The translations under genes and the position numbers were made by a program. This document shows positions 19,436 to 25,569 of a stretch of DNA of 64,000 nucleotides, in pieces; position 1 is the stretch's first letter; each line of letters begins with the position of its first letter. The stretch spans positions 3,456,001 to 3,520,000 of the forward strand of contig OY970166.1 in the NCBI GenBank assembly GCA_963706595.1. Direction: 5' to 3'. Origin of the DNA: an uncultured cyanobacterium (lineage in GTDB: Bacteria > Cyanobacteriota > Cyanobacteriia > Cyanobacteriales > Nostocaceae). The notes under the pieces were generated by a model, which did not search any database, was not told the origin of the DNA, and worked only from the letters and a program-made list of their open reading frames with translations.

Positions 19436-19468
19436 AGATCCCCGACTTCTTGTAGAAGTCGGGGATCT
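19436..19468. repeat. AGATCCCCGACTTCT/AGAAGTCGGGGATCT palindrome (copy 2)
   Basis: Perfect 15-bp stem between convergent genes. Confidence 0.85.
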
Positions 19469-19633
19469 GAACCTCGCGCTGTTTACAGTGATGTGTTTTT
19501 TTATTAAGAATTAACGAACCGCAAAGGGCGCAAAGAGCGCTAAGAAAGAAGGAATGAAGAGAAAGAAAAAGGTTGAGTTCTAAATAATAGAATATTTGAA
19601 ATTTACTTGTGAAGCGGGGATATTACCTGCTAA

Positions 19634-22561
19634 TTATCTTAAACCCTGACAGATAAAAGCAGACCAGTAATGAGGAGCAGAAAAAGGAAATTGCTGGGTA
19701 GAGTTTTCGATTTCATTAATTCGTCTGTTAAATTTGGCATACATATTATATTCAGACTCCCATTGCTTATATTCCACGGAACCTGAAATATATTTTTTTC
19801 TATTTCTTATCAGTTCTTTTTCTCTTGGTTCTACTTGCTGAAATATTTGTTTGAGGTCTATTTTTGTAAGTTCGCGTAGCTGAATTTGGGCTTGTCTTAG
19901 TGCTTCAGTACGACTTTGACCTTGTTTTCGGTGCTGGTAGTAGAAAATGGCAAATATTGCTGTCGCTACATCATCTACTTTCCAAAGACTACTGATAACA
20001 CTTCTCGCACCAGCACACAAAAAACCTGTGGAGAGGGTAAGAATATCATCAGTTAAAGAAGGTGTACCTAAATTAGTTTCGCAGCAAGATAGAAACACTT
20101 CTACAAGTTGAGGTAATCGCCAACTTGGTGTCATCAATTGTCCCAAGGTGATGCTGCTACCATGCGCTAATGTTAACTGTGATTCTAAAGGATTATCGAG
20201 GCGAGATTGGGCATGGTGACAGGAATGAAGTCCTTGGACTTGTTGTGCTAACTTGCGATAATTCTTAGAAGTCGCTTGATTACTGCCGATTAATCTATTT
20301 TCTCGTGGAATATTATACATTTTGGCAATTTCTTCACCTTCAAATATGGAGCAGGGAAGGTCATCTTCTGCATCTTCCACGGTTCCATATTGTAGAGACA
20401 TTTGATTAGATGTCTCTATGGTTTTATGTGGTTGACAAAATTCTAAAATTTGGCAGCTTGGAGTGTAGCGAATCAGAAATTTATCTCCTAAATATTCCTG
20501 ATATTCTCCTGTAGGTAAAGCCGCGAAGGGAATCTGATGAAGTAACAGGTGAGGGACTAAAATTAATTCTTCTATTCCTTCAAGATGTTGGGATATAAGT
20601 TCAGCTATTTGCAAGCGTTCAGCTAGTTCGTGGAGAATACTGTGAATATCAGTTTCCCATTTTTGGGGTTCATTCATATAAGGCAATAACCAATTCTGGT
20701 TAATCCAGCCTTGCAATGTTTCTAGCCCTTGTCCTGTGCAAGTGTGGAGACTAATTTGGCTTTGCTGAACGACAAAAATATGGGTGTCGCTGTTGGTGGT
20801 ATAAAAACTGAGGATAGCTGTATTAGGTAGGTCAATTAGCTTCTGAATTTCTGACAAGCTGAGGGGGTTAACTTGAATTTCTCCAGCTAATACGGGATCT
20901 TCGCGTCTGAGATTTTCCCAAACTTGTTGTTTGTCTGTTTCTAAAGATGCGATCGCTTCATTATAAGCGTCCCAAGCAGCCCGTGTGTCACTACGTTTAT
21001 TTTCAGATTTATGGCGTTGGCGTTCTTCGTCAATTTGTCGTTGCAATTCTTCATACTGCTGCAATAACTCTTGGACTTTTGGAGGAATTTCGCCACCTTG
21101 GTAGAGGTCATTACTTGCCATTAAGTCTACCAGACGTTTGGAACGCGATCGCTCTGAATATTCAAAAGCTTTTTCTATTTGTCCAGCGTTGATGCAAGCT
21201 TGCACCATATTTTCGTAAATACCGATGGATTTTTCCAGGATTTCCTGACGACGATATTCAGATTTTGTCCAAGAACGACTAGTTTCTACAGCTTGAATAG
21301 CTAGTCCATATCCTGCGATAGCTTCTGACCATAATTCGGCATGAAAAGTCATATTGCCTAGATTATATGCAGAGTTGAGGGACATAAGTGGAAAAGCAGT
21401 ATGTGTGTATACTTTTAGTGCTGACTTAAACTTTTCTATTGCTTTATCAATTTGTCCTTTATCACGGTAGGCAGCACCTAAATTATTTTGTGTGGTTGCC
21501 CATTCTTCGGGAAAATCTTCTATGGTACGAACTTTCAAAGCTTGTTCATAATAGCGGATAGCTGATTCTATATTTTGTGGCTTATCGCCATCAATCCGAG
21601 TACAGTAAGCATTTCCCAAATTATTTTGAATTTTAGCCCAATATTGTGGAAATAAAGGTCTTGTAAATACTTGCAATGCTAATTCATACATTTTGATAGC
21701 TTCTTCAATATTATGCGCTCTATTAATACCAATTGTTTGGCAGTAGGCATTACCCAGATTTATATTTATTTCAGCCGATTTTTGAGTCAATTTGTGCTGA
21801 TTATATGTTTGTAAAGCATTTTGATAGCAAATAATCGCTGTTTCTAAATTTTCAGATTTATCGCCGTAACTAATTGCAAGATAAGCACTTCCTAAATTAC
21901 TTTGTGTATCTGCCCACCTTTCAGGGAATATTTCCCGTTTATAAACTTGCAAAGCATTTTGATAGCAAATAATCGCTGTTTCTAAATTAGAAAATTGTTC
22001 ACCATGAATTCTATCAAGATAGGCATTTCCTAAATTAATCTGTGTATCTGCCCACATTTCAGGCAATTTTTCATAGTTACGAACTAGCAAGGCATTTTTA
22101 TAACAAAGAATCGCTGTTTCCAAATTTTTATCTCGTTCTTCACGTAGCCTTTTACAGAATGCATTCCCTAAACTGTTTTGGGCAGTAGCCCATTCTTCTT
22201 TATATATTTTTTGGCTGAAAACACTTTCAACTATTTGGTAGCCAATAATAGCAATTTCTAAATTAATAGCTGGAACGCCCAAGGAAAAATCCTGAATAAC
22301 ATTGCTGAAGTTGACAATATCAACTGCAATTGCATATGCATTTTTTTCGTCTACTCTAGATAAGGTATCTAATGTCCAACTTCGCCATACTTGAATTAGC
22401 TGATCATCCAGTTTATTCAGGTTAGTTTGCAGTAATGAAGATATTGCCTGGGAGTTACCGTGGCTGTTGTGAGTTATCTGCAATACTTCAAGCAAAAAAT
22501 CAAGATAATACTTGCGGTTTTTTTTACCCTTTTTTAGTTCAGAGCCGAATCCTTTCGCCAT
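19634..22561 (-). CDS. TPR-repeat plus CHAT (caspase-like) protease
   Basis: ~46-aa TPR-like repeats (WAxTQNNLGxAY), AFEYSERSRSKRL linker, LVPHLLLHQIPFAALP, His motif LHSCHHA, Cys motif VFLSCCET, SSLWKVDD, PHYWSAF. Confidence 0.95.
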   Translation of the reverse strand: MAKGFGSELKKGKKNRKYYLDFLLEVLQITHNSHGNSQAISSLLQTNLNKLDDQLIQVWRSWTLDTLSRVDEKNAYAIAVDIVNFSNVIQDFSLGVPAINLEIAIIGYQIVESVFSQKIYKEEWATAQNSLGNAFCKRLREERDKNLETAILCYKNALLVRNYEKLPEMWADTQINLGNAYLDRIHGEQFSNLETAIICYQNALQVYKREIFPERWADTQSNLGSAYLAISYGDKSENLETAIICYQNALQTYNQHKLTQKSAEININLGNAYCQTIGINRAHNIEEAIKMYELALQVFTRPLFPQYWAKIQNNLGNAYCTRIDGDKPQNIESAIRYYEQALKVRTIEDFPEEWATTQNNLGAAYRDKGQIDKAIEKFKSALKVYTHTAFPLMSLNSAYNLGNMTFHAELWSEAIAGYGLAIQAVETSRSWTKSEYRRQEILEKSIGIYENMVQACINAGQIEKAFEYSERSRSKRLVDLMASNDLYQGGEIPPKVQELLQQYEELQRQIDEERQRHKSENKRSDTRAAWDAYNEAIASLETDKQQVWENLRREDPVLAGEIQVNPLSLSEIQKLIDLPNTAILSFYTTNSDTHIFVVQQSQISLHTCTGQGLETLQGWINQNWLLPYMNEPQKWETDIHSILHELAERLQIAELISQHLEGIEELILVPHLLLHQIPFAALPTGEYQEYLGDKFLIRYTPSCQILEFCQPHKTIETSNQMSLQYGTVEDAEDDLPCSIFEGEEIAKMYNIPRENRLIGSNQATSKNYRKLAQQVQGLHSCHHAQSRLDNPLESQLTLAHGSSITLGQLMTPSWRLPQLVEVFLSCCETNLGTPSLTDDILTLSTGFLCAGARSVISSLWKVDDVATAIFAIFYYQHRKQGQSRTEALRQAQIQLRELTKIDLKQIFQQVEPREKELIRNRKKYISGSVEYKQWESEYNMYAKFNRRINEIENSTQQFPFSAPHYWSAFICQGLR

Positions 22562-22576
22562 TTATTTAGGTACTTT

Positions 22577-23311
22577 CTATTTATGATTATCAAAAACTTC
22601 TGCCAACTTCTCCACCAGTTCCTCTGCTAAATCCAATAACTCAATTTCATCAATTTCATCAACTTGATCAATAGTTCCGCGATTCCTTTCTCCAACTGCC
22701 ACATTACCAACTAAGATATTTTTTACATAAAAAATCCGGTCTTCTTCCTCCGAAAGACTCAGACATTTTTCCAACTCTACAGCAACTTCCTGGGTTGTCC
22801 TTGCACCTAAACGCGCTCTCACTTTCACCGCTACTAAATCGTCACTTTCCAGGAATTTTACCAAAGCTATTCTCAGTCCATCATCCTGCTTAGAAAACTT
22901 CTCAATTGCTGCACAAACATATTCCCGCACACTCATGTTTGCCGCCAATGCCTTTTGTCCAACTACATCTGGGACATCTACCAGTAATACACCTTCATTA
23001 TCGCTGGCTTGATATAATTCATCCTCTTTTTTCACAGCTACCAGCAAATCAGCACCCAACGCGTGTAAATAGTGCAACACTGATTCCAACTCATGTTCCT
23101 TTAACGCCGACTCCAATTTAGACACCGCCGCTTGCTGCACTCCTAGTTTTTCCGCTAGCTGCGCCTGAGTCAATCCTGCCTTATTACGTATTTCCCGCAT
23201 CGCATCTGTTAGATATAGACGCAGGTACTCTAACTTACCCGCCAAAATCACTTCTGGATCTTCGCTGACCTGTTGCTGTAACCAAGCTTGAAAATTAGGC
23301 TTTTTCATCAC
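22577..23311 (-). CDS. XRE/HigA-like antitoxin fused to an RHH-like segment and an acidic C-terminal domain
   Basis: REIRNKAGLTQAQLAEKLGVQQAAVSKLE HTH; ATGA overlap with the toxin stop; 244 aa, about twice a typical HigA. Confidence 0.85.
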   Translation of the reverse strand: MMKKPNFQAWLQQQVSEDPEVILAGKLEYLRLYLTDAMREIRNKAGLTQAQLAEKLGVQQAAVSKLESALKEHELESVLHYLHALGADLLVAVKKEDELYQASDNEGVLLVDVPDVVGQKALAANMSVREYVCAAIEKFSKQDDGLRIALVKFLESDDLVAVKVRARLGARTTQEVAVELEKCLSLSEEEDRIFYVKNILVGNVAVGERNRGTIDQVDEIDEIELLDLAEELVEKLAEVFDNHK

Positions 23312-23712
23312 TGTTCCCTCTGCTGCAATTCACGCAATCTTACTCTTGCAGGTTCTTTGTCTCTATCTTTGATAGCGCCGTCGTATTTTTTCATAAAGGC
23401 GTGCAACACAATAAACTTCTGAGGAGTAGCAGCCGTTAAGATAAACCGGGGATTATGTTCACTCTTAGTCATACGTAACTCATACAGGTCATCTTCCAGC
23501 TTCTCAAAGATTCCACTGGTCAGTGATAACAGTCCTTTGTTGCACAGGTAGCCGAGATTAACTTGCAGACGCTTAGTTTCGGAAGCACTCAGTAATGGCT
23601 TTGGTGGATTCTCTGGTTGTTCCTCTGGCGGAATCATGCGAATGAAAAAAGCAAGTAAATCTTTGGGGATTTCCCCATCGATATCTTGATAAAGTTCCCA
23701 ATTCCAACTCAC
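23308..23712 (-). CDS. RelE/ParE-superfamily toxin (Gp49/HigB-like)
   Basis: FEKLEDDLYELR...PRFI...FIVLHAFMKK...ARVRLREL; toxin-before-antitoxin order as in higBA. Confidence 0.85.
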   Translation of the reverse strand: MSWNWELYQDIDGEIPKDLLAFFIRMIPPEEQPENPPKPLLSASETKRLQVNLGYLCNKGLLSLTSGIFEKLEDDLYELRMTKSEHNPRFILTAATPQKFIVLHAFMKKYDGAIKDRDKEPARVRLRELQQREQ

Positions 23713-23724
23713 TTCCTACCTCAC

Positions 23725-23777
23725 AATATATTATTCCTTAGCAGGAATGTCAATATGTTTATTCTTTACAAGGAATA
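23725..23777 (-). promoter_or_regulatory. Sigma70 promoter with two tandem operators
   Basis: TTGACA (23753-23748), 17-bp spacer, TATATT (23730-23725); ATTCCT-N4-AGGAAT at 23733-23748 and ATTCTT-N4-AGGAAT at 23761-23776. Confidence 0.8.
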
Positions 23778-23829
23778 TCATATAAAATAAGTGAGTGCAA
23801 CTAAGCTAATCAAAGATTTAGCCATAAAA

Positions 23830-23883: not shown

Positions 23884-25569
23884 TTAACTCAATTGTTCAT
23901 GCTTAAATTTCCCTTTAATGGATTTGTTAAAGTATTGACCTTTAGACGGTGCATTGTCTAAGTCTTCCTTGACGCTAGGAGGTACTTTGAAATACTCGTA
24001 AACACTGCCACTATCAAATTCAATAGTCAGTGTTTGAGTTTGGGGATTATAGCTAAATTGCCTAATCACGCTGCCTTCTGGCTTGAGTAACGGAAAGGCG
24101 ATCGCATCCCGAATACTGGCACAATCAGTTAATAGCATCACTAACCGATCAATCCCAATCCCCAAACCACCTGTAGGCGGCATTCCGTATTCCAAAGCTG
24201 TGATAAAGTCCTCATCGACACCTTGGGCTTCTAAATCACCAGCAGCTTTCAGCGCCGCTTGGGCTTCTAAACGTTCTCTTTGATCTACTGGGTCTGTTAA
24301 CTCAGAGAAACTGTTAGCAGTCTCACGCCCCACGATAAATAATTCAAATCGTTCTACCAAACCCGGCTGAGAACGATGAGGTTTAGCTAAAGGTGAAATT
24401 TCTACAGGATAATCTGTGACAAAAGTCGGCTGAATTAAGTTTTCTTCTATCTTTTGTTCAAAAGCTGCATTCAAAAGTTTGCCAATTGTGGGGATATCTT
24501 CTATACCATGAAGCCCCGCATTTTTACTCGCCGCTTTCGCCTCTTCCAATGTCGAGAAAGAATTGAAATCCAAGCCTGTATATTCTTTAACTAAATCGTG
24601 CATCGTCACCCGTCGCCAAGGTGCTGATAAATCTATCGGTCTGCCTTGGTAGGTAATTTGTAGTGTGCCGAGTACCTCTTGGGCAACAGTGGTAATAATT
24701 CCCTCTGTCAGCGCCATCATATCGTTGTAATCAACGTAGGCTTGGTAAACCTCAATTGAGGTAAATTCGGGATTGTGGCGAGTTGATACGCCCTCATTCC
24801 GAAAAATTCGCCCTAATTCAAACACCTTTTCAAAACCACCGACAATCAACCGTTTTAAATGCAGTTCTGTAGCAATTCGTAGATACAACTGCATCTCTAA
24901 GGTGTTGTGGTAAGTCACAAACGGACGCGCATCAGCACCGCCAGCTTCACTTTGCAAAACAGGCGTTTCAATTTCCAGAAAATCCCGTTCTGTCAAATAG
25001 CGGCGAATCCCCGCAGTAATTTGGGCGCGACGGCGGAAGGTTTGCCGCACTTCGGGATTAACAATTAAATCAACATAGCGCTGACGGTAGCGTTTCGCCA
25101 CATCCGTTAAACCATGCCACTTGTCGGGTAGAGGCAACAGGGATTTTGTCAGGATGCTGTATTCTTTGACGTAAACAGATAATTCGCCCTTTTCAGTCCG
25201 TTTAATAGTGCCTTTGACTCCCAGAATATCACCTGCATCTGTAAGTTGTTTGAGGTGAGCGAAGGCATCAGCATCAGCCTCTCCCATGCATTCTTGGATA
25301 CGGCTTTTCTCTAAATAAAGTTGAATAGTGCCAGTTTCATCTTGCAGCGTGAAGAAAGCCAGTTTACCGAAAACACGACGCGCCATAATGCGCCCAGCAA
25401 CGGCAACATCTAGATCAACTTCTTCACCACTGGGTAAATCAGCAAATTTTGCTTGCAATTCGGCTGTGTGATGAGTAGACTCCCAACGATAGGCGTAAGG
25501 ATTAGATCCTAGCTGCTTGAGTTGGTTGACTTTTTCCAGCCTAGCGGCACGGATATCTTCTTCCGACAT
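23884..25569 (-). CDS. lysS: Lysine--tRNA ligase (class II) with C-terminal KTSC domain
   Basis: OB fold, [18 protein letters not shown]...[21 protein letters not shown]-terminal [24 protein letters not shown]...[11 protein letters not shown] is KTSC. Confidence 0.98.

Follow-up and report, generated by a model that had tools for sequence, protein, structure and literature searches.

An uncultured cyanobacterium of the family Nostocaceae carries, on the minus strand of the stretch of its genome analysed here (64,000 nucleotides, positions 3,456,001 to 3,520,000 of contig OY970166.1 in assembly GCA_963706595.1, hereafter the window), three tightly packed and co-oriented open reading frames (ORFs) for a toxin, an antitoxin and a protein with tetratricopeptide repeats (TPR) and a CHAT protease domain. 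The antitoxin ends in an unannotated helical module, here named antiC, which recurs on unrelated proteins encoded next to CHAT proteases of the same subfamily, and we suggest that this module probably places the antitoxin under the control of the protease encoded beside it. The features of the locus are listed below in window coordinates, from the promoter to the end of the cassette:

Positions 23731-23752 and 23759-23780 (span 23731..23780), no strand assigned: two operator-like repeats of 22 nucleotides, each with a palindrome of the ATTCC..GGAAT type
Positions 23725..23753, minus strand: promoter-like site with -35 TTGACA, a spacer of 17 nucleotides and -10 TATATT (11 of 12 matches)
Positions 23308..23712, minus strand: toxin gene with a GTG start, 134 amino acids, Gp49/HigB-like, of the RelE/ParE superfamily
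Positions 22577-23311, minus strand: antitoxin gene, 244 amino acids, XRE type
Positions 23027..23311, minus strand: antitoxin residues 1-95, N-terminal helix and XRE/HTH_3 DNA-binding domain (from Pfam, Foldseek and a match to gp48 of phage N15)
Positions 22871..23026, minus strand: antitoxin residues 96-147, class-specific middle segment that is kept in natural truncated forms
Positions 22580..22870, minus strand: antitoxin residues 148-244, the antiC module of about 97 residues (from a hidden Markov model (HMM), alignment A1 and an AlphaFold2 model)
Positions 22679..22681, minus strand: codon of Arg211, candidate P1 residue in a predicted disordered loop of antiC (from conservation and analogy with HetF)
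Positions 19634-22561, minus strand: TPR-CHAT gene, 975 amino acids
Positions 21302..22276, minus strand: TPR array, about residues 96-420
Positions 20213-20218, minus strand: codons of His782 and His783, candidate catalytic histidine
Positions 20081-20086, minus strand: codons of Cys826 and Cys827, candidate catalytic cysteine
Positions 19643..20608, minus strand: CHAT domain (caspase-like, clan CD), residues 652-973
Positions 19436..19468, minus strand: terminator-like hairpin with a 15-bp stem, 166 nucleotides past the CHAT stop codon, between convergent genes

The ORFs were called mechanically, and the ORF listing and the Pfam matches agree on the three co-oriented genes that an earlier note on this DNA had described from its letters; the gene order also recurs in relatives. 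That note was likewise right about the 15 nucleotides that separate the antitoxin gene from the CHAT gene, and about the length of the antitoxin, of which about 150 residues follow the HTH domain. The overlap that it saw between toxin and antitoxin exists, but the junction reads GTGATG instead of ATGA, and the overlap amounts to 4 nucleotides with the GTG start or to 1 nucleotide with the ATG at positions 23306-23308. Its assumption of one promoter is in line with the strong site before the toxin gene, whereas a second promoter-like site with 9 of 12 matches at positions 22614-22586, just 5' of the CHAT gene, leaves a single promoter plausible.

The toxin matches the Pfam family Gp49 (PF05973) with an expectation value (E) of 4.7e-9 and 36.6 bits, compared to a cut-off of 23.9. 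For the antitoxin, Pfam gave a match to HTH_3, at residues 38-69 only (E 9e-10), and an alignment of 26 antitoxins (A1) shows the three parts listed above. An HMM of the middle segment, antiM, matches this class of antitoxins only, including a truncated protein of 163 residues in locus L048, and this segment is presumed to be the toxin-binding part. In a Foldseek search of the whole antitoxin model against the PDB, the HTH part alone was matched, none of the matches reached E 0.001 or better, and the best were to XRE, HigA2 and HipB structures (E about 1e-2), with the DdrO structure 6jq1 also among them (E 7e-2). The matches in a phage collection were confined to the HTH part too, and included gene 48 of phage N15, which is 38% identical to residues 32-89. 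The nearest named relative of the antitoxin is from Nodularia chucula (94%).

The pair thus has what is expected of the Gp49/HTH class of type II systems, namely a Gp49 toxin, an adjoining and overlapping XRE antitoxin gene downstream, and palindromes in the promoter. We propose that the core of the cassette is an ordinary autoregulated type II pair of the gp49/gp48 kind of phage N15, with a toxin that would be an mRNA interferase of the Gp49/HigB type. The likeness to the N15 pair includes the toxin, the HTH part of the antitoxin and the toxin-first order (PMC11980606, available text), but ordinary members of that class have two genes and antitoxins of roughly 100 residues, whereas the antitoxin described here continues for another 150 residues and is linked to a protease.

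The promoter region is also conserved. The two operator-like repeats form a direct repeat with 82% identity (D1) and an inverted repeat (I1), and the proximal copy fills the promoter spacer. The -35 hexamer, the palindrome, the -10 hexamer and the context of the start codon, in the same layout, are found in all 15 orthologous loci printed, which range from Nostoc to Okeania (Nostocales to Oscillatoriales). This layout is typical of toxin-antitoxin operons that repress themselves, and the antitoxin probably binds there. Promoter-like sites as such are not in excess in the region (18, compared to 12.6 in shuffled sequences, with a standard deviation of 3.6). The -10 hexamer ends 12 nucleotides before the toxin GTG (positions 23707-23725), which would leave a leader of a few nucleotides if this promoter and this start codon are in use.

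The third protein of the cassette has the hallmarks of a CHAT protease. Its CHAT domain scores 143.8 bits against PF12770 (cut-off 24; E 9.6e-42), and the preceding repeats match TPR_12 (E 1.1e-17) and other TPR families. The histidine (LHSCHHA) and cysteine (FLSCCET) motifs highlighted in the earlier note are both present in the translation, and residues H782, H783, A784, S825, C826, C827, E828 and T829 are invariant in 26 aligned orthologues, in line with an intact catalytic dyad. The TPR part diverges more than the CHAT part (48% compared to 81% identity in locus L032), and the orthologous ORFs vary in length from 803 to 1735 residues. The NCBIfam model for Csx29 gave 65.6 bits, below its cut-off of 300. 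The genome, a single contig of 5.57 Mb, contains 10 genes with a CHAT domain, and the gene beside the antitoxin is the only one of this subfamily.

Far from being a one-off fusion, which the earlier note had named as the outcome that would speak against its proposal, the arrangement recurs in differing genomic contexts. A first sample of 20 places was taken from a search with the antitoxin in 401 genomes of the same order; one of these loci ends inside the antitoxin gene, and toxin, antitoxin and CHAT-coding DNA follow each other on one strand in 18 of the 19 testable loci, which represent 8 GTDB families (one of the 18 has a fragmented CHAT gene). A second sample consisted of the best 80 of 117 relatives found in a scan with the antitoxin of one genome for each of 185,579 GTDB species, about a dozen of which are shared with the first sample. 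A toxin ORF lies upstream in all 79 loci with an antitoxin ORF. Seven loci had too little DNA downstream, and a CHAT ORF follows on the same strand in 63 of the 73 that could be tested; 55 of these ORFs have at least 700 residues, 8 are fragments, and 33 start within 350 nucleotides. The records are cyanobacterial, except for a 5.6-kb contig binned as Acetobacteraceae and one labelled "uncultured bacterium," and two loci are on Nostoc plasmids. The gene upstream is lysS in the Nostocales, in Stigonema and in Scytonema, and the flanks in the Oscillatoriales contain PAS proteins, a resolvase, ParA/ParB, a Dam methylase or plain metabolic genes. Since the flanking genes differ between orders, the cassette travels as a unit, without an obvious defence island around it. 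Taken together, these comparisons support the view that the three genes form one conserved unit in filamentous cyanobacteria.

Several features of the surroundings and of individual loci were also noted. In the window, the cassette lies between lysS (lysyl-tRNA synthetase, positions 23884-25569, minus strand), which has a KTSC domain at its C-terminus (PF13619, E 1.8e-22), and a convergent gene for a molybdopterin oxidoreductase downstream; the same lysS-KTSC fusion precedes the cassette in several further loci of the Nostocales, including the "plasmid1" record of Nostoc carneum. The content of guanine plus cytosine is 0.33-0.41 over the protease gene (positions 19500-22500), compared to 0.42-0.48 in the flanks, which fits a repeat-rich or a horizontally acquired gene. 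In a metagenome-assembled genome of Symplocastrum torsivum (L043:6031-7155, the same place as L233), the antitoxin ORF continues in frame into TPR repeats to a total of 374 residues and is followed by a TPR-CHAT ORF of 937 residues, and this may be either a natural fusion of antitoxin and TPR or a rearranged 5' end of the protease gene. In three Okeania genomes (L241, L242 and L244), the toxin and the antiC-bearing antitoxin are kept, there is no CHAT gene within 6 kb, and genes of the Uma2 family of putative restriction endonucleases are located downstream.

The key to the link between antitoxin and protease is the antiC module. Pfam gave no family for antiC or for three other proteins that carry it, even at E up to 10, and NCBIfam gave no match for 15 accessory proteins. 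An HMM of antiC identified proteins with other N-termini that are encoded between the antitoxin and the CHAT gene; such an additional antiC ORF is present in 20 of the 63 CHAT-bearing loci of the second sample, and locus L049 has three carriers. Some of the additional antiC genes partner other genes of toxin type, namely MazF/PemK (L047 and L049), a PIN-like DUF5615 protein (L046) and a second Gp49 protein (L049). A further 60 places were selected by their match to antiC alone, and 59 of them contain an antiC ORF. Of these 59, 24 have a CHAT gene from the subfamily of the window (E 1e-125 to 1e-172 with the CHAT HMM) immediately downstream, and 3 have one immediately upstream. The carriers include XRE proteins behind Gp49 toxins, proteins of about 253-264 residues with an N-terminal half that matches DUF1822 in Pfam, full-length DUF1822 proteins with an embedded antiC, proteins of 155-196 residues, and one TRADD-like_N protein. 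We also reversed the test: the 401 genomes were searched with the CHAT part, and the 99 best matches were taken independently of antiC. Twelve of these are at contig ends; of the 87 that were testable, 59 have an antiC ORF on the same strand no more than 3.5 kb upstream, mostly within 500 nucleotides.

The module is also lost together with the protease. In loci L048 and L238, the toxin is intact, the antitoxin has been reduced to 163 and 156 residues, respectively, and both antiC and the CHAT gene are missing; the part that is retained in L238 is 93% identical to the antitoxin in the window. This joint loss connects antiC with the protease. The link to the protease that the earlier note had suspected for the appended part of the antitoxin is thereby borne out, and these observations support the interpretation of antiC as a portable helical module that marks the partner proteins of this CHAT subfamily. 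We also considered whether antiC could be a homotypic adaptor that is present in the protease as well, and this idea was rejected, because the antiC HMM did not match a single CHAT ORF in the sets of ORFs that were searched.

Other antiC genes are found in the company of two conserved protein families. The genome of the window contains only two antiC ORFs, the antitoxin and a protein of 148 residues (C1:4782520-4782966), which is encoded outside the window behind an ORF of 236 residues (region C1:4781738-4782966), with no CHAT gene nearby; this small protein is a candidate substrate in trans for the protease in the window. The preceding ORF belongs to what we call family A, conserved proteins of about 231-243 residues that precede antiC proteins of 150-190 residues (L032:5369-6100, L051:6068-6763 and 6 more; alignment A5). 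Family A has no match in Pfam or NCBIfam. Atlas gave a lead to restriction-endonuclease-like families (0.88-0.90), the AlphaFold2 model has a predicted local distance difference test (pLDDT) score of 67.8, and a wide structural search returned generic helical matches (best Z 7.2) and the Vsr endonuclease (Z 4.8), the latter over the C-terminal alpha/beta part at residues 157-243. The second family, B, consists of proteins of 207-240 residues encoded directly upstream of a DUF1822-N protein with antiC and a TPR-CHAT protease (L076:7784-8485, L077:5832-6530, L081:7816-8439 and others; alignment A4). It was linked by Atlas to a cluster named sigma-70 family (0.96), single members gave weak Pfam matches to Sigma70_r3 (0.055) and r4_2 (0.12), and its profile produced only chance-level matches against PDB sequences (E 1.5 and 1.8). 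Judging from the Atlas lead and from the cassettes described by Kaur et al. (2021), family B is probably a divergent sigma factor, and a sigma-like identity would make these loci a cassette of sigma factor, tagged inhibitor and protease in parallel to the one with a toxin and an antitoxin. Finally, a protein of 372 residues (L071:6458-7576) contains two antiC modules in tandem (residues 194-278 and 282-366), with no adjacent CHAT gene on the same strand.

An AlphaFold2 model based on alignment A1 has a mean pLDDT of 62 for the antitoxin as a whole, with values of 82-90 in the helices of antiC. In the region of antiC, the model shows the end of a long helix that starts upstream of the module (residues 128-155), three helices (residues 159-200), a loop that is predicted to be disordered (residues 201-218, pLDDT 42-47) and an acidic C-terminal helix. 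This last helix is the most conserved part, at least 90% conserved over 198 unique antiC domains, and Arg211 in the loop is invariant in the 26 sequences of A1. The earlier note had suggested a co-folding of the CHAT protein with the antitoxin C-terminus. For residues 80-975 of the protease and 148-244 of the antitoxin, three runs gave interaction prediction scores from aligned errors (ipSAE) of 0.39, 0.38 and 0.39, whereas the best of three controls gave 0.00; the runs agree in at least 95% of their contacts and the pLDDT of the partner is at least 74. The prediction thus passed its controls at a level graded as weak. In the calibration, 116 of 157 solved complexes and 2 of 215 mismatched pairs passed the mark, and scores of 0.60 or below were seen in just 18 of these 157 complexes and in the two mismatches that passed. 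The model favours a contact between antiC and the protease, if weakly, and together with the genomic patterns it makes a physical interaction between the two likely in our view.

We hypothesize, with moderate confidence, that the activated CHAT protease cuts the antitoxin that antiC addresses to it and thereby releases the toxin. In this mechanism, of which the binding, the cleavage and its site, the trigger and the outcome are inferred, antiC would dock on the adjoining protease, perhaps through its conserved acidic C-terminal helix. The fast-evolving TPR array would read a signal and switch the protease on, and the antitoxin would then be cut, most likely after Arg211 in the exposed loop. 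The antitoxin fragments would be degraded, the toxin would be set free and the operon, which the antitoxin probably represses via the palindromes overlapping the promoter, would be derepressed. The same subfamily of proteases would likewise control other inhibitors tagged with antiC, such as the DUF1822-type partners of sigma-like proteins. The common logic would then be a partner, an antiC-tagged inhibitor and a protease, with the toxin as the partner and the antitoxin as the inhibitor in the window.

Precedents for the individual steps are available. The CHAT domain of HetF in Anabaena sp. PCC 7120 cleaves the specific substrate PatU3 after R117 and no longer does so when this residue is changed (R117A, R117D or R117H). 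Degradation of the fragments follows, and the processes that had been inhibited can proceed (Xing et al., 2022, PNAS; PMC9457339, available text). HetF is also a cyanobacterial CHAT protease with the same domain and dyad, antiC offers a conserved arginine in a disordered loop, and the assignment of the cleavage site to Arg211 draws on this analogy. The systems differ in that HetF has a transmembrane segment and periplasmic TPRs, and its output is cell division and heterocyst development rather than a toxin (PMC9457339). In the genome of the window, which is that of a heterocyst-former, antiC was found only in the antitoxin and in the 148-residue protein; PatU3 itself was not compared.

A second precedent is the type III-E CRISPR system, in which the TPR-CHAT protease Csx29 cleaves Csx30 in its complex with Csx31 and RpoE (PMC11127173, available text). 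There too, the genes for protease and substrate are neighbours, a regulator is held by the substrate and the response begins with a cut at a specific site, and the sister cassettes with a sigma-like protein, a DUF1822-N protein with antiC and a TPR-CHAT protease share this logic. However, there is no Cas7-11, CRISPR array or Csx30 at the locus, and the Csx29 model stayed below its cut-off; activation cannot be RNA-guided. A third parallel comes from caspase genes located beside an extracytoplasmic function (ECF) sigma factor and a DUF1822 gene in multicellular bacteria (Kaur, Iyer, Burroughs and Aravind, 2021, eLife; PMC8195603). In other genomes, the CHAT subfamily studied here is indeed preceded by a sigma-like gene and then by a DUF1822-N protein that ends in antiC, whereas the pair in the window is a toxin and an XRE antitoxin, with Gp49 upstream in the place of a sigma gene. 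Neither the antitoxin nor its antiC part matched Pfam DUF1822, even at E up to 10, and a form coupled to a toxin-antitoxin pair is not mentioned in the available text of that study.

Several observations weigh against the proposed mechanism. Among the places selected by antiC alone, 32 of 59 have no adjacent CHAT gene on the same strand, including the second antiC gene of this genome, so that antiC can persist away from the protease. Conversely, 28 of the 87 testable CHAT genes in the reverse test have no detectable antiC partner; these are mostly the more distant CHAT matches, and both HMMs derive from this class, so that divergent copies may have escaped them. In 10 of the 73 testable loci of the second sample, the toxin and the antitoxin are kept with no CHAT gene within 6 kb, and antiC is retained in 9 of the 10; TPR remnants are seen in two of the 10. 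The genomes compared are related and not independent, and the counts therefore overstate the number of independent events. The loop arginine is conserved in about 80% of the 198 unique antiC domains of all classes and is thus not universal, and the weakness of the co-fold should also be considered. Furthermore, antitoxins without antiC coexist with intact toxins and probably still work as antitoxins, so that the toxin is probably not set free when only antiC is removed. A cut in the loop must then lead to the loss of the whole antitoxin, as for PatU3, or the cut must be located elsewhere.

The same applies to the role in defence, for which the earlier note had put forward the locus as a candidate. 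The conserved three-gene unit has held up, whereas matches to known systems, island context and viral copies were all sought in vain. PADLOC-DB 2.0.0 gave no system-specific model for the three proteins, only generic HTH and TPR matches and weak ones to NsnC (0.0071) and TPR (0.0013), no clear defence-island context was seen in the window or in the flanks of relatives, and the viral contigs contained no relative of the antitoxin. A role in defence is at present only an analogy.

We also considered the possibility that the wiring runs in the opposite direction, with the toxin-antitoxin pair as the sensor and the protease as an effector that is kept inactive by the antiC tail of a labile antitoxin. 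If antitoxin synthesis stops, for example upon host shut-off by a phage, both toxin and protease would be released, and the protease would attack other proteins in the cell. Co-occurrence, co-loss and the weak co-fold fit this scheme equally well, it explains why antitoxins without antiC still function, and CHAT defence proteins encoded by single genes exist, such as Borvo (bioRxiv 10.1101/2024.10.26.620412, available text). We nevertheless find it unlikely, since several antiC proteins often precede one protease, as in the 20 of 63 loci with an extra ORF and the three carriers in L049, and since some antiC genes are remote from all CHAT genes, and many substrates are more natural than many inhibitors. 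Moreover, the neighbour or partner protein is the substrate in HetF and in type III-E CRISPR (PMC9457339 and PMC11127173, available text), and an inhibitory tail would give the conserved arginine in the exposed loop no role.

Another explanation is that the coupling is only transcriptional, with the XRE antitoxin, alone or with the toxin, regulating the protease gene, and with antiC serving as an oligomerisation or ligand-sensing domain that does not contact the protease. The conserved promoter with operator-like palindromes in front of a tightly packed operon would be expected under this scheme, and the HTH part of the antitoxin has weak PADLOC matches to regulators of defence operons (capH, E 9.5e-5; HTH_VI, E 5e-9). 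However, antiC also terminates proteins that have no DNA-binding domain and are encoded before the same subfamily of proteases (the DUF1822-N, TRADD-like_N and 155-196-residue carriers), it was lost with the protease gene in L048 and L238 while the repressor part stayed, and the co-fold passed its controls, if weakly. We therefore consider this explanation quite improbable.

The tripartite layout also recalls the toxin-antitoxin-chaperone (TAC) systems, which consist of a toxin of the HigB/Gp49 family, a HigA antitoxin with a C-terminal addiction extension and a SecB-like chaperone (PMC9098466 and PMC11980606, available text). By analogy, the tail could destabilise the antitoxin unless it is held by the TPR part, titration of which would free the toxin, and the protease activity would serve another purpose. 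The two operons share a toxin of the Gp49 family, an HTH antitoxin that is extended at its C-terminus compared to two-gene relatives (here those of 163 residues in L048 and of 156 in L238), and a third gene, the product of which is predicted to recognise the extension. The most conserved part of antiC is an acidic C-terminal helix, and TPR domains commonly bind acidic C-terminal peptides. Yet the third gene encodes a TPR-CHAT protein and not a SecB-like one, and the extension is a folded helical module instead of a short aggregation-prone segment. A pure holder would not need the catalytic dyad that is invariant in 26 of 26 orthologues, and the 9 loci that keep an antiC antitoxin and an intact or nearly intact toxin with no adjacent CHAT gene would not be expected unless a copy acts in trans. 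An addiction of this type is in our opinion very improbable. Finally, the genome has 10 CHAT-domain genes and toxin-antitoxin pairs are numerous in cyanobacteria, but that an ordinary pair came to lie beside one of the CHAT genes by chance is hardly credible in view of the CHAT gene in 63 of 73 loci, the 59 of 87 in the reverse test, the differing flanks, the co-loss and the location of the only gene of this CHAT subfamily in the genome next to the antitoxin.

XRE repressors that are inactivated by a dedicated neighbouring protease, whereupon the operon is switched on, are familiar from CapH/CapP of the cyclic-oligonucleotide-based antiphage signalling systems (CBASS), ImmR/ImmA and DdrO/IrrE. 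Proteases of the CapP, ImmA and IrrE kind are metallopeptidases, and we know of no toxin partner or antiC in any of these three systems. In the literature searched, mostly outside the subscription journals, we came across no report of a CHAT protease that is coupled to a toxin-antitoxin pair, and the form was not found in the available text of a 2025 survey of ten families of protease-effector modules. The statement in the earlier note that this is not a named system is in agreement with PADLOC and with this literature, with the qualification that the sister cassette of sigma factor, DUF1822 protein and caspase had been catalogued by Kaur et al. (2021). What we rate as new is a putative protease-gated inhibitor cassette in which the antitoxin is the inhibitor, joined to its sister cassettes by the shared and hitherto unannotated antiC module.

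The cassette brings together three themes that tend to be handled separately, namely toxin-antitoxin systems with three components, regulators gated by a protease in the manner of Csx29/Csx30 and HetF/PatU3, and the caspase-centred conflict systems of multicellular bacteria. It has long been asked what triggers toxin-antitoxin systems of type II, and a protease linked through antiC would offer a defined route to toxin release, as opposed to general turnover by Lon and Clp. Few bacterial CHAT proteases have known substrates, and antiC predicts substrates for an entire subfamily, whether encoded in cis or in trans, as well as a candidate loop for the cut. Should the tag suffice for recognition, antiC could also be used as a portable module for addressing proteins to a protease.

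A more far-reaching hypothesis, which we put forward tentatively and think possible rather than probable, is that antiC is a portable address tag, through which one TPR-CHAT protease per genome controls tagged inhibitors in cis and elsewhere by arginine-directed cleavage. The tagged set would then comprise the antitoxins of Gp49 and other toxin-like partners, the DUF1822-type partners of sigma factors and the TRADD-N adaptors, and a single signal could fire several outputs, such as growth arrest and transcription programmes. Such a network would give multicellular cyanobacteria a caspase-like pathway of cell fate, in which the tagged substrates are interchangeable.

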